From assembly GCF_013315695.1 (NCBI RefSeq), contig NZ_CP054353.1: a stretch of DNA of 64,000 nt; one strand, written 5' to 3'. The translations under genes and the position numbers were made by a program. Below, piece after piece: positions 50,397 through 59,969 of this stretch; position 1 is the stretch's first letter; each line of letters opens with the position of its first letter. The notes under the pieces are model-generated. The model was given only the letters and a program-made list of their open reading frames with translations, was not told the origin of the DNA and made no database searches. The DNA comes from Escherichia coli (GTDB taxonomy: Bacteria > Pseudomonadota > Gammaproteobacteria > Enterobacterales > Enterobacteriaceae).

Positions 50397-51965
50397 ATGT
50401 TAGATATAGTCGAACTGTCGCGCTTACAGTTTGCCTTGACCGCGATGTACCACTTCCTTTTTGTGCCACTGACGCTCGGTATGGCGTTCCTGCTGGCCAT
50501 TATGGAAACGGTCTACGTCCTTTCCGGCAAACAGATTTATAAAGATATGACCAAGTTCTGGGGCAAGTTGTTTGGTATCAACTTCGCTCTGGGTGTGGCT
50601 ACCGGTCTGACCATGGAGTTCCAGTTCGGGACTAACTGGTCTTACTATTCCCACTATGTAGGGGATATCTTCGGTGCGCCGCTGGCAATCGAAGGTCTAA
50701 TGGCCTTCTTCCTCGAATCCACCTTTGTAGGTCTGTTCTTCTTCGGTTGGGATCGTCTGGGTAAAGTTCAGCATATGTGTGTCACCTGGCTGGTGGCGCT
50801 CGGTTCAAACCTGTCCGCACTGTGGATTCTGGTTGCGAACGGCTGGATGCAAAACCCAATCGCGTCCGATTTCAACTTTGAAACTATGCGTATGGAGATG
50901 GTGAGCTTCTCCGAGCTGGTGCTTAACCCGGTTGCTCAGGTGAAATTCGTTCACACTGTAGCGTCTGGTTATGTGACTGGCGCGATGTTCATCCTCGGTA
51001 TCAGCGCATGGTATATGCTGAAAGGTCGTGACTTCGCCTTCGCTAAACGCTCCTTTGCTATCGCTGCCAGCTTCGGTATGGCTGCCGTTCTGTCTGTTAT
51101 TGTTCTGGGTGATGAATCTGGTTACGAAATGGGCGACGTGCAGAAAACCAAACTGGCTGCTATTGAAGCCGAGTGGGAAACGCAACCTGCGCCTGCTGCC
51201 TTTACTCTGTTCGGCATTCCTGATCAGGAAGAGGAGACGAACAAATTTGCGATCCAGATCCCTTACGCGCTGGGCATCATTGCAACGCGTTCCGTGGATA
51301 CTCCAGTTATCGGCCTGAAAGAACTGATGGTGCAGCATGAAGAACGCATTCGTAACGGGATGAAGGCGTACTCTCTGCTCGAGCAACTGCGTTCTGGTTC
51401 TACCGACCAGGCGGTTCGTGACCAGTTCAATAGCATGAAGAAAGACCTCGGTTACGGTCTGCTGCTGAAACGCTATACGCCAAACGTGGCTGATGCGACT
51501 GAAGCGCAGATTCAACAGGCAACCAAAGACTCCATTCCGCGTGTAGCGCCGCTGTACTTCGCGTTCCGTATTATGGTGGCGTGTGGCTTCCTGCTGCTGG
51601 CAATCATCGCGCTCTCTTTCTGGAGTGTCATCCGCAACCGCATTGGCGAGAAAAAATGGCTGCTGCGCGCCGCGCTGTACGGTATTCCGCTGCCGTGGAT
51701 TGCTGTAGAAGCGGGCTGGTTCGTGGCTGAATATGGCCGCCAACCGTGGGCTATCGGTGAAGTGCTGCCGACAGCTGTGGCGAACTCGTCACTGACCGCA
51801 GGCGATCTCATCTTCTCAATGGTGCTGATTTGCGGCCTGTATACCCTGTTCCTGGTGGCAGAATTGTTCTTAATGTTCAAGTTTGCACGCCTCGGCCCAA
51901 GCAGCCTGAAAACCGGTCGCTATCACTTTGAGCAGTCTTCCACGACTACTCAGCCGGCACGCTAA
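50397..51965 (+). CDS. cydA: Cytochrome bd-I ubiquinol oxidase subunit I
   Basis: Start at second ATG ([28 protein letters not shown]), 522 aa. Confidence 0.97.
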
Positions 51966-51980
51966 GACAGGAGTCGTCAA

Positions 51981-53120
51981 ATGATCGATTATGAAGTATT
52001 GCGTTTTATCTGGTGGCTGCTGGTTGGCGTTCTGCTGATTGGTTTTGCAGTCACTGACGGTTTCGACATGGGGGTGGGCATGCTCACCCGTTTCCTCGGT
52101 CGTAACGACACCGAGCGTCGAATTATGATTAACTCCATTGCACCACACTGGGACGGTAACCAGGTTTGGCTGATCACCGCGGGCGGCGCACTCTTTGCTG
52201 CCTGGCCGATGGTCTATGCCGCTGCGTTCTCCGGCTTCTATGTGGCGATGATCCTCGTGCTGGCGTCTTTGTTCTTCCGTCCGGTCGGTTTTGACTACCG
52301 CTCCAAGATTGAAGAAACCCGCTGGCGTAACATGTGGGACTGGGGCATCTTCATTGGTAGCTTCGTTCCGCCGCTGGTGATTGGTGTGGCGTTCGGTAAC
52401 CTGTTGCAGGGCGTACCGTTCAACGTTGATGAATATCTGCGTCTGTACTACACCGGTAACTTCTTCCAGCTGCTTAACCCGTTCGGCCTGCTGGCAGGCG
52501 TGGTGAGCGTTGGGATGATCATTACTCAGGGCGCGACTTACCTGCAAATGCGTACCGTGGGCGAACTGCACCTGCGTACCCGTGCAACGGCTCAGCTGGC
52601 GGCACTGGTGACACTGGTCTGCTTCGCACTGGCTGGCGTATGGGTGATGTACGGTATCGATGGTTATGTCGTGAAATCGACAATGGACCATTACGCAGCC
52701 TCTAACCCGCTGAATAAAGAAGTGGTTCGTGAAGCTGGCGCATGGCTGGTTAACTTCAACAACACGCCGATTCTGTGGGCTATTCCTGCACTGGGTGTGG
52801 TTCTGCCGCTGCTGACCATCCTGACTGCACGTATGGATAAAGCCGCGTGGGCGTTTGTGTTCTCCTCCCTGACGCTGGCCTGCATCATCCTGACTGCCGG
52901 TATTGCAATGTTCCCGTTTGTGATGCCGTCCAGCACCATGATGAACGCAAGTCTGACAATGTGGGATGCAACTTCCAGCCAGCTGACGCTTAACGTCATG
53001 ACCTGGGTTGCGGTGGTTCTGGTACCGATCATTCTGCTCTACACCGCCTGGTGTTACTGGAAAATGTTCGGTCGTATCACCAAAGAAGATATTGAACGTA
53101 ACACCCACTCTCTGTACTAA
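51981..53120 (+). CDS. cydB: Cytochrome bd-I ubiquinol oxidase subunit II
   Basis: 379 aa MIDYEVLRFIWWLLVGVLLIGFAVTDGFDMG... Confidence 0.97.
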   Translation: MIDYEVLRFIWWLLVGVLLIGFAVTDGFDMGVGMLTRFLGRNDTERRIMINSIAPHWDGNQVWLITAGGALFAAWPMVYAAAFSGFYVAMILVLASLFFRPVGFDYRSKIEETRWRNMWDWGIFIGSFVPPLVIGVAFGNLLQGVPFNVDEYLRLYYTGNFFQLLNPFGLLAGVVSVGMIITQGATYLQMRTVGELHLRTRATAQLAALVTLVCFALAGVWVMYGIDGYVVKSTMDHYAASNPLNKEVVREAGAWLVNFNNTPILWAIPALGVVLPLLTILTARMDKAAWAFVFSSLTLACIILTAGIAMFPFVMPSSTMMNASLTMWDATSSQLTLNVMTWVAVVLVPIILLYTAWCYWKMFGRITKEDIERNTHSLY

Positions 53121-53134
53121 GTAAGGAGCTAAAA

Positions 53135-53248
53135 ATGTGGTATTTCGCATGGATTCTGGGAACGCTTCTTGCCTGTTCGTTTGGGGTAATCACCGCGCTG
53201 GCGCTTGAGCACGTCGAATCAGGCAAAGCCGGTCAAGAAGACATCTGA
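53135..53248 (+). CDS. cydX: Cytochrome bd-I oxidase small subunit CydX
   Basis: 37-codon ORF MWYFAWILGTLLACSFGVITALALEHVESGKAGQEDI* read by hand (below track cutoff); stop overlaps the ybgE start. Confidence 0.85.
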   Translation: MWYFAWILGTLLACSFGVITALALEHVESGKAGQEDI

Positions 53249-55280: not shown

Positions 55281-56531
55281 GTGTCAAAGGCAACCGAACA
55301 AAACGACAAGCTCAAGCGGGCGATAATTATTTCAGCAGTGCTGCATGTCATCTTATTTGCGGCGCTGATCTGGAGTTCGTTCGATGAGAATATAGAAGCT
55401 TCAGCCGGAGGCGGCGGTGGTTCGTCCATCGACGCTGTCATGGTTGATTCAGGTGCGGTAGTTGAGCAGTACAAACGCATGCAAAGCCAGGAATCAAGCG
55501 CGAAGCGTTCTGATGAGCAGCGCAAGATGAAGGAACAGCAGGCTGCTGAAGAGCTGCGTGAGAAACAAGCGGCTGAACAGGAACGCCTGAAGCAACTTGA
55601 GAAAGAGCGGTTAGCGGCTCAGGAGCAGAAAAAGCAGGCTGAAGAAGCCGCAAAACAGGCCGAGTTAAAGCAGAAGCAAGCGGAAGAGGCGGCAGCGAAA
55701 GCGGCGGCAGATGCTAAAGCGAAGGCTGAAGCGGATGCAAAAGCTGCGGAAGAAGCAGCGAAGAAAGCGGCTGCAGACGCGAAGAAAAAAGCAGAAGCAG
55801 AAGCCGCCAAAGCCGCAGCCGAAGCGCAGAAAAAAGCCGAGGCAGCCGCGGCGGCACTGAAGAAGAAAGCGGAAGCGGCAGAAGCAGCTGCAGCTGAAGC
55901 AAGAAAGAAAGCGGCAACTGAAGCTGCTGAAAAAGCCAAAGCAGAAGCTGAGAAGAAAGCGGCTGCTGAAAAGGCTGCAGCTGATAAGAAAGCGGCAGCC
56001 GACAAAAAAGCAGCAGAAAAAGCGGCTGCTGAAAAGGCAGCAGCTGATAAGAAAGCAGCGGCAGAAAAAGCCGCCGCAGACAAAAAAGCGGCAGCGGCAA
56101 AAGCAGCAGCTGAAAAAGCCGCTGCAGCAAAAGCTGCCGCAGAGGCAGATGATATTTTCGGTGAGCTAAGCTCTGGTAAGAATGCACCGAAAACGGGGGG
56201 AGGGGCGAAAGGGAACAATGCTTCGCCAGCCGGGAGTGGTAATACTAAAAACAATGGCGCATCAGGGGCCGATATCAATAACTATGCCGGGCAGATTAAA
56301 TCTGCTATCGAAAGTAAGTTCTATGACGCATCGTCCTATGCAGGCAAAACCTGTACGCTGCGCATAAAACTGGCACCCGATGGTATGTTACTGGATATCA
56401 AACCTGAAGGTGGCGATCCCGCACTTTGTCAGGCTGCGTTGGCAGCAGCTAAACTTGCGAAGATCCCGAAACCACCAAGCCAGGCAGTATATGAAGTGTT
56501 CAAAAACGCGCCATTGGACTTCAAACCGTAA
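55281..56531 (+). CDS. tolA: Tol-Pal system protein TolA
   Basis: 416 aa, GTG start; N-terminal TM anchor, long Ala/Lys/Glu-rich helical domain II, C-terminal domain III. Confidence 0.95.
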   Translation: MSKATEQNDKLKRAIIISAVLHVILFAALIWSSFDENIEASAGGGGGSSIDAVMVDSGAVVEQYKRMQSQESSAKRSDEQRKMKEQQAAEELREKQAAEQERLKQLEKERLAAQEQKKQAEEAAKQAELKQKQAEEAAAKAAADAKAKAEADAKAAEEAAKKAAADAKKKAEAEAAKAAAEAQKKAEAAAAALKKKAEAAEAAAAEARKKAATEAAEKAKAEAEKKAAAEKAAADKKAAADKKAAEKAAAEKAAADKKAAAEKAAADKKAAAAKAAAEKAAAAKAAAEADDIFGELSSGKNAPKTGGGAKGNNASPAGSGNTKNNGASGADINNYAGQIKSAIESKFYDASSYAGKTCTLRIKLAPDGMLLDIKPEGGDPALCQAALAAAKLAKIPKPPSQAVYEVFKNAPLDFKP

Positions 56532-57966: not shown

Positions 57967-58512
<546 letters not shown>

Positions 58513-58521
58513 GAGAATTGC

Positions 58522-59313
58522 ATGAGCAGTAACTTCAGACATCAACTATTGAGTCTGTCGTTACTGGTTGGTATAGCGGCCCCCTGGGCCGCTTTTGCTC
58601 AGGCACCAATCAGTAGTGTCGGCTCAGGCTCGGTCGAAGACCGCGTCACTCAACTTGAGCGTATTTCTAATGCTCACAGCCAGCTTTTAACCCAACTCCA
58701 GCAACAACTCTCTGATAATCAATCCGATATTGATTCCCTGCGTGGTCAGATTCAGGAAAATCAGTATCAACTGAATCAGGTCGTGGAGCGGCAAAAGCAG
58801 ATCCTGTTGCAGATCGACAGCCTCAGCAGCGGTGGTGCAGCGGCGCAATCAACCAGCGGTGATCAAAGCGGTGCGGCGGCATCAACGACGCCGACAGCTG
58901 ATGCTGGTACTGCGAATGCTGGCGCGCCGGTGAAAAGCGGTGATGCAAACACGGATTACAATGCAGCTATTGCGCTGGTGCAGGATAAATCCCGCCAGGA
59001 TGACGCAATGGTGGCATTTCAGAATTTCATCAAAAATTACCCTGATTCAACTTTCCTGCCAAACGCCAATTATTGGCTGGGTCAGTTAAACTACAACAAG
59101 GGTAAAAAAGATGATGCGGCGTACTATTTTGCTTCGGTAGTGAAAAACTATCCGAAGTCACCAAAGGCTGCAGATGCGATGTTTAAAGTCGGCGTCATCA
59201 TGCAGGACAAAGGTGACACCGCAAAAGCGAAAGCCGTATACCAGCAGGTTATCAGTAAATACCCTGGTACTGATGGTGCTAAACAGGCGCAAAAACGTCT
59301 GAACGCGATGTAA
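58522..59313 (+). CDS. cpoB: Cell division coordinator CpoB (YbgF), TPR protein
   Basis: 263 aa; signal peptide, coiled-coil, TPR repeats. Confidence 0.93.
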   Translation: MSSNFRHQLLSLSLLVGIAAPWAAFAQAPISSVGSGSVEDRVTQLERISNAHSQLLTQLQQQLSDNQSDIDSLRGQIQENQYQLNQVVERQKQILLQIDSLSSGGAAAQSTSGDQSGAAASTTPTADAGTANAGAPVKSGDANTDYNAAIALVQDKSRQDDAMVAFQNFIKNYPDSTFLPNANYWLGQLNYNKGKKDDAAYYFASVVKNYPKSPKAADAMFKVGVIMQDKGDTAKAKAVYQQVISKYPGTDGAKQAQKRLNAM

Positions 59314-59477: not shown

Positions 59478-59553
59478 GGGTCGTTAGCTCAGTTGGTAGA
59501 GCAGTTGACTTTTAATCAATTGGTCGCAGGTTCGAATCCTGCACGACCCACCA
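59478..59553 (+). tRNA. lysT: tRNA-Lys (anticodon UUU)
   Basis: 76-nt GGGTCGTTAGCTCAGTTGGTAGAGCAGTTGACTTTTAATCAATTGGTCGCAGGTTCGAATCCTGCACGACCCACCA with encoded CCA; anticodon loop cTTTTaa. Confidence 0.95.
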
Positions 59554-59599
59554 ATCGCTAAGGTGGAAGCGGTAGTAAAACGTGAAGGATAACGTTGCG

Positions 59600-59653
59600 T
59601 CAGCAACGGCCCGAAGGGCGAGACGAAGTCGAGTCATCCTGCACGACCCACCA
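59600..59653 (+). repeat. tRNA-Lys 3'-fragment relic in the lysT-valT spacer
   Basis: ...GGCCCGAAGGGCGAGACGAAGTCGAGTCATCCTGCACGACCCACCA repeats the tRNA-Lys acceptor/T-arm 3' end and is near-identical to the segment at 60380-60437. Confidence 0.55.
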
Positions 59654-59688
59654 CTAACATAGTTAGTTGTAGTATCCAGCGTAGTATT

Positions 59689-59764
59689 GGGTGATTAGCT
59701 CAGCTGGGAGAGCACCTCCCTTACAAGGAGGGGGTCGGCGGTTCGATCCCGTCATCACCCACCA
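59689..59764 (+). tRNA. valT: tRNA-Val (anticodon UAC)
   Basis: 76-nt GGGTGATTAGCTCAGCTGGGAGAGCACCTCCCTTACAAGGAGGGGGTCGGCGGTTCGATCCCGTCATCACCCACCA. Confidence 0.95.
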
Positions 59765-59766
59765 CC

Positions 59767-59842
59767 GGGTCGTTAGCTCAGTTGGTAGAGCAGTTGACTT
59801 TTAATCAATTGGTCGCAGGTTCGAATCCTGCACGACCCACCA
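59767..59842 (+). tRNA. lysW: tRNA-Lys (anticodon UUU)
   Basis: Identical 76-nt tRNA-Lys sequence. Confidence 0.95.
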
Positions 59843-59893
59843 CTAATGACGGTGGGTTCGGTGGAAGTAGTTTGTAGTATCCAGCGCAGTATC

Positions 59894-59969
59894 GGGTGAT
59901 TAGCTCAGCTGGGAGAGCACCTCCCTTACAAGGAGGGGGTCGGCGGTTCGATCCCGTCATCACCCACCA
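59894..59969 (+). tRNA. valZ: tRNA-Val (anticodon UAC)
   Basis: Identical 76-nt tRNA-Val sequence. Confidence 0.95.

Follow-up and report, generated by a model that had tools for sequence, protein, structure and literature searches.

The question raised by this locus is whether a low-complexity Ala/Lys/Glu-rich stretch of the tolA gene of Escherichia coli (55500-56160 of the 64,000-nt DNA analysed, hereafter referred to as the window) is a true tandem repeat, how its length comes to vary, and whether the long open reading frame (ORF) running antisense to it represents a gene. We regard the interval, with a probability of about 94%, as the published tandem-repeat tract of tolA domain II in a natural 12-unit allele, accompanied by antisense ORFs that arise from base composition. 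Nothing suggests a new kind of element, and the tract, its variability among strains, the phenotypic consequences of this variability and the genetics of the rearrangements are already known and published; the sole small addition made here is that the same single-unit deletion occurs in complete genomes on at least three SNP backgrounds. The present analysis itself shows which gene this is, its periodicity, the polymorphism among strains, the homology at the junction and the null expectation from composition, while the phenotypes and the RecA dependence are taken from the literature. The coordinates of the features are collected in Table 1.

Table 1. Features of the tolA locus, in window coordinates.
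Feature	Position	Strand	Description	Basis
tolA CDS	55281..56531	+	GTG start, 416 aa; cell envelope integrity protein TolA	ORF list, Pfam
TolA domain II	55461..56132	+	aa 61-284; long Ala/Lys/Glu/Gln-rich alpha-helical region	AlphaFold2 helix, composition
Weak degenerate upstream repeats in domain II	55668..55839	+	periods 10-24 nt, scores 31-70	Tandem Repeats Finder (TRF)
Core tandem-repeat tract	55956..56144	+	aa 226-288; 12 imperfect 15/18-bp units KAAAE/KAAAD(K)/KAAAA	TRF, Fourier analysis, unit parsing
15-nt deletion junction relative to the common 1266-bp allele	55986..55999	+	exact position ambiguous within the common AGAAAGCGGCAGC homology	codon and DNA alignments
219-aa antisense ORF	55619..56278	-	TTG start; Ala/Ser/Phe/Leu only	ORF list
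157-aa antisense ORF, second frame	55714..56187	-	compositional by-product	ORF list

The identity of the gene follows from its domains, its sequence and its neighbours. The C-terminal domain (domain III) matches PF06519 along the entire profile (aa 320-414, profile positions 1-96 of 96, E=1.9e-38, 131 bits vs. a cut-off of 25), the N-terminal anchor (domain I) is represented by the hydrophobic stretch AIIISAVLHVILFAALIW at aa 14-31 inside the predicted helix H4-34, and at the DNA level the gene shows no difference from tolA as annotated in E. coli MS 21-1 (WP_016234563.1; 100% identity). ORFs and Pfam matches in the window give the cluster order ybgC-tolQ-tolR-tolA-tolB-pal-cpoB, with MotA_ExbB (tolQ) and ExbD (tolR) upstream of tolA and TolB_N and PD40 (tolB) downstream, and RefSeq annotation likewise shows tolR-tolA-tolB. 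Across nine RefSeq records the TolR and TolB proteins carry the same accessions and the TolA accessions vary. A search of the E. coli genome collection matched tolA in 5,425 of 5,426 complete genomes; the single genome without a match, as well as two of the 5,431 tolA matches that fall on records classed as plasmids, are possibly artefacts of assembly or classification.

The first-pass annotation had described domain II as encoded by degenerate AAEKAAADKK-type repeats. The interval spans aa 74-294, approximately domain II, and its product consists of 44% Ala, 21% Lys and 16% Glu. At 55938-56134, TRF found arrays with periods of 15, 33 and 63 nt (scores 104, 177 and 199), and residue autocorrelation over aa 216-294 peaked at lags of 5, 11, 16, 21 and 32 with a maximum z of 5.5, a value reached by none of 2000 composition-preserving shuffles. 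Fourier analysis of the tract returned one dominant period of 5.29 residues, again beyond all shuffles (0/500). The clear head-to-tail array occupies about 190 nt of the 660-nt interval, its distal third. The proximal two thirds (55500-55940) consist of low-complexity sequence coding for helix, in which repeats are weak and degenerate, mostly a matter of compositional bias: TRF gave only weak, short arrays there and autocorrelation over aa 74-215 was modest, with a maximum z of 4.6 (lag 14) that one of 2000 shuffles attained. Upstream of the unit named TR1, Zhou et al. also noted that the repeat units are less conserved (PMC3477136). This proximal part favours the reading that the region is of low complexity only, with length differences among strains unrelated to any repeat; the reading is refuted for 55956-56144, where periodicity is strong in both DNA and protein, beyond composition-preserving shuffles, and where all indels seen are duplications or deletions of whole blocks within the repeats, and for the region as a whole we consider it very improbable. 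The earlier description thus holds for the distal third, in which TRF and autocorrelation detect periodicity exceeding that of shuffled sequences and units can be parsed, and gives way to compositional bias over most of the remainder.

The boundaries of the tract were set by mapping the primers of Zhou et al. (PMC3477136), which match the window exactly or with one mismatch, together with unit parsing. The units read, in order, KAAAE, KAAAD, KKAAAD, KKAAE, KAAAE, KAAAD, KKAAAE, KAAAD, KKAAAA, KAAAE, KAAAA and KAAAE. The tract in the window is the tolA tandem-repeat region as defined by Levengood et al. (1991), Schendel et al. (1997) and Zhou et al. (2012, PMC3477136), and its 12 units fall within the natural range of 8-16. 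In MG1655 the tract comprises 13 units, likewise imperfect and 15/18 bp long (Zhou et al. 2012, PMC3477136), and the K-12-like allele aligned here has 13 units in 204 nt; the tract in the window differs from that of MG1655 in allele alone, being a natural 12-unit form without unit 3 of the 13 units of K-12. The missing unit is AAAGCGGCAGCAGAG (KAAAE), and besides its loss 12 synonymous SNPs separate the window allele from the K-12-like one. In alleles that retain unit 3, this unit and the following one share a direct homology of 13 nt (NC101 type) or 7 nt (K-12 type).

A shorter allele in a repetitive region might also be an error of sequencing or assembly, to which short-read assemblies are prone at repeats. 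The identical allele is present in five complete genomes, all 100% identical, and the 1251-bp length recurs in at least 25 records from independent projects; natural variation between 8 and 16 units has moreover been confirmed by PCR (Zhou et al., PMC3477136). The identical 15-nt deletion of unit 3 was found on three synonymous-SNP backgrounds, namely that of the window allele, the K-12-like background of strain A12 and the NC101-like background of strain NU14, with both of the latter strains confirming the deletion on other backgrounds. Error is thereby effectively refuted and, in our estimation, has next to no chance of being the explanation. The occurrence of one deletion on three backgrounds implies either recurrent loss at a single site or intragenic recombination and transfer of the tract.

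The proneness of the tract to length variation, another part of the first-pass annotation, was borne out when tolA lengths were compared across strains, and had been published by Zhou et al. in 2012. A rank-spread sample of 40 among the 5,425 matching E. coli genomes contained 39 full-length genes, the remaining match being broken off at a contig end, and these fell into seven length classes between 1185 and 1311 bp: 1266 bp in 27 of the 39 genes, 1311 bp in four, 1299 bp in three, 1185 bp in two, and 1251, 1260 and 1215 bp in one each. The share of the 1266-bp class (69% in the sample) agrees with the 66% published for the 13-unit allele among 234 isolates, which together ranged from 8 to 16 units (PMC3477136). 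When one allele per class was aligned, the copy-number polymorphism proved confined to the tract, in that all indels were in frame, in multiples of 3 nt, and lay within aa ~201-250, the repeat block; elsewhere the seven alleles differ at three residues. At the codon level the indels correspond to whole repeat blocks of 6, 15, 33, 45, 51 and 81 nt. The smallest removes one GCAGCT from a doublet and the 15-nt deletion removes one unit, the insertions of 33 and 45 nt duplicate a double and a triple unit, respectively, and the larger deletions of 51 and 81 nt in O157:H7-type alleles extend past unit 1 into the less well conserved repeats that precede it, as was likewise seen by Zhou et al. in laboratory and natural alleles (PMC3477136). 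Across nine alleles, 36 of the 39 polymorphic sites are synonymous third positions. The length of tolA can serve as a ready-made polymorphic marker. Because the units are in frame and structurally interchangeable, misalignment would add or remove whole units without destroying the protein, which would account for a length that varies without loss of TolA.

Replication slippage had been named as the source of this variation, a proposal which is at best part of the answer. The published genetics suggest that contraction proceeds mainly by recombination between units, at least for the selected multi-unit contractions, since the spontaneous frequency falls from 6.9e-5 in the wild type to 1.0e-5 in recA (down to 15%), while a uvrD mutation raises it 3.3-fold and a mutS mutation leaves it unchanged (PMC3477136). 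The dominant contraction in the same study was a five-unit deletion, which also argues against length change by slippage alone, without homologous recombination, as do the higher-order homology blocks of 33, 63 and 78 nt that could support recombination. In favour of such an exclusive role of slippage, direct homology of 7-13 nt flanks the unit-3 deletion at a spacing of just 15 nt, a classic substrate of slipped-strand misalignment, and about 15% of contraction events persist in the recA mutant (PMC3477136). On balance we consider it unlikely that slippage accounts for the variation by itself. For the single-unit event slippage is plausible, bearing in mind that slippage and recombination leave the same junction here and are indistinguishable by sequence.

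The consequences of unit number are likewise known from isogenic alleles carrying 2 to 39 units, all of which retain function (PMC3477136). The responses to deoxycholate, to osmotic/acid stress and to phage fd all depend on unit number: tolerance of deoxycholate is higher with more units, tolerance of high salt combined with low pH is best, at the wild-type level, with 6, 8 or 13 units, and plating of phage fd peaks at 13 units (PMC3477136).

In the cell envelope the domain II stalk bridges the distance from domain I, which anchors TolA in the inner membrane together with the TolQ-TolR stator, to domain III and its contact with TolB-Pal at the outer membrane. Each repeat unit codes for roughly one and a half turns of a Lys-Ala3-Glu/Asp helix. 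Textbook helix geometry gives about 7.5 A of helix for a 5-residue unit, the amount by which a gain or loss of such a unit would be expected to lengthen or shorten it. AlphaFold2, run on a shallow alignment of only seven near-identical tolA alleles, predicted one continuous helix over aa 61-284 (H61-284), with pLDDT values of 80-91 at aa 81-200 and 57-63 over the repeat tract (mean 69; pTM 0.26). This model contains no hairpin turn and, at such low confidence, speaks neither for nor against the helical hairpin of about 220 A obtained for domain II from a deep alignment, which has been proposed to extend under the proton-motive force and so reach TolB-Pal (Webby et al. 2022, PMC8928145). The effect of a single unit on the reach of TolA would depend on which of these geometries applies.

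The charge pattern suggests what kind of helix the units encode. Opposite charges at i/i+4 number 42 in domain II vs. 21.1 expected (z=5.6) and 10 in the repeat tract vs. 4.8 expected (z=2.9, p=0.008), and strong enrichment is limited to this spacing. The tract lacks an amphipathic face: its Fourier power at 95-105 degrees per residue is 0.12, a value that 96% of shuffles attain. In proximal domain II the signal for such a face was marginal (97-98 degrees, p about 0.04-0.06). From i/i+4 charge pairs in a helix lacking an amphipathic face, the tract resembles a salt-bridged helical spacer of the (EAAAK)n type, and a spacer role is what we would infer by analogy. An alanine stripe (hendecad or "Alacoil") built on the 11-residue super-unit KAAAEKAAADK was also considered, as alanines lined up on one helical face would explain packing of the hairpin; it was ruled out by the lack of power at 95-105 degrees, the only Fourier peak being located at 68 degrees (5.29 residues).

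The likeness to known spacers has its limits. With designed (EAAAK)n linkers and natural ER/K single alpha-helices (SAH) the tract shares an Ala-rich helix bearing Lys and Glu/Asp, i/i+4 opposite charges and the want of Fourier power near 100 degrees per residue, which makes a semi-rigid spacer plausible; to ER/K helices the analogy is loose, as the TolA tract is ~60% alanine and its charge density is below that of classical ER/K. SAH domains are, in addition, isolated single helices, whereas domain II of TolA is a helical hairpin in the published models (PMC8928145). The periplasmic spacer of TonB, with its Pro-Glu/Pro-Lys sequence, is repetitive, of low complexity and tolerant of length change like that of TolA, and similarly runs from an inner-membrane anchor, which a stator of the MotA/ExbB type energises, to a C-terminal domain whose site of action is the outer membrane, a functional analogy drawn in PMC8928145; it is, however, proline-rich and extended rather than alpha-helical, and the sequences are unrelated. 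Bacterial contingency loci and VNTRs have in common with the tolA tract a hypermutable repeat, copy numbers that change within clonal populations, and effects on phenotype (PMC3477136). The instability of the tract was measured in MG1655 (about 7e-5), and the unit-3 deletion on three SNP backgrounds lends it indirect support. In contrast to them, the changes in tolA are in frame and modulate protein length instead of switching a gene on and off by frameshift, the units are long (15-18 bp) and imperfect, and the instability is RecA-dependent and independent of mismatch repair.

There remains the question of the antisense frames. The first-pass annotation had dismissed the 219-aa ORF as spurious, and we concur. 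Domain II is encoded almost exclusively by GCN, AAR and GAR codons with little T on the sense strand (7.6% of the interval vs. 24% of the whole window) and hardly any stop-codon complements (TTA, CTA and TCA total four in the interval, all before 55715), and for this reason each of the three antisense frames stays open over 148-180 of 221 codons. The openness does not exceed what composition predicts, as the longest open run observed was reached by 28% of codon shuffles and by 98% of synonymous resamplings drawn from the codon usage of neighbouring genes. A real overlapping gene for an Ala/Ser/Phe-rich hydrophobic protein might nevertheless be suspected from the fact that the 219-aa frame is open in all nine alleles, over 198-240 codons, and that only 4 of 30 natural polymorphisms alter its amino acids, compared with 3 non-synonymous changes in the sense frame. 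The low count is forced, however, since the third codon positions of the ORF coincide with those of tolA. In the second antisense frame, that of the 157-aa ORF, 24 of 26 natural polymorphisms are non-synonymous and one creates a stop, so that this frame is clearly not constrained. The 219-aa ORF, moreover, begins at TTG with no internal Met, no Shine-Dalgarno-like sequence in the 30 nt upstream and no promoter-like site on the minus strand upstream of 56278, matches no Pfam family, is unannotated in the nine RefSeq records, and a literature search gave no report of an antisense or overlapping gene at tolA. Cumulatively, we hold a real gene in this frame to be extremely improbable. The length of the 219-aa frame changes together with the tolA repeat, and one may imagine a broader proposal in which the frame is translated at a low level as an overlapping gene co-varying in length with TolA or, in a milder form, in which the unit-3 deletion on three SNP backgrounds reflects a recurrent hotspot or else selection that favours 12 units in particular extra-intestinal (B2-type) lineages; taken jointly, these options strike us as highly unlikely.

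Terminator-like motifs, i.e. hairpins with a T-run, number 10 on both strands at 55743-56148 of the window vs. 3.0 +/- 1.8 expected, and nine of the ten are on the minus strand, inside the 219-aa ORF and the repeat region, a position which also speaks against a gene there. The excess is probably compositional, resulting from GCTGC...GCAGC palindromes and AAA codons read in reverse, and the hairpins could favour misalignment in single-stranded DNA. More generally, coding regions rich in GCN, AAR and GAR yield long false antisense ORFs and false terminator-like hairpins on the opposite strand. Elsewhere in the window, a 426-aa antisense ORF (51870-53150, -) lies opposite a cydB-like gene (51981-53120, +, 379 aa), which it exceeds in length, and is probably a non-coding antisense frame.

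Several further features were observed around the gene. A sigma-70-like promoter match (TTGTCA, 18-nt spacer, TAAACT) is located at 56426-56455 (+), in the 3' end of tolA and ~200 nt ahead of tolB; reports exist of an internal promoter serving tolB-pal in this area. The mechanically called ORF of pal (57967-58512, +) begins at TTG, and the true start is likely an internal ATG followed by a lipobox-like AACSS. Across the pal-cpoB junction, at 58413-58551 (+), the sequence matches the Rfam model of the CpoB/ybgF intercistronic RNA thermometer over its full length (RF02782, 142 bits vs. a gathering score of 51). Directly downstream of cpoB, four tRNA matches are clustered at 59478-59966 (+), and a match to RtT RNA (RF00391, 60.6 bits, 59485-59653) overlaps the first tRNA of the cluster and runs into the next spacer.
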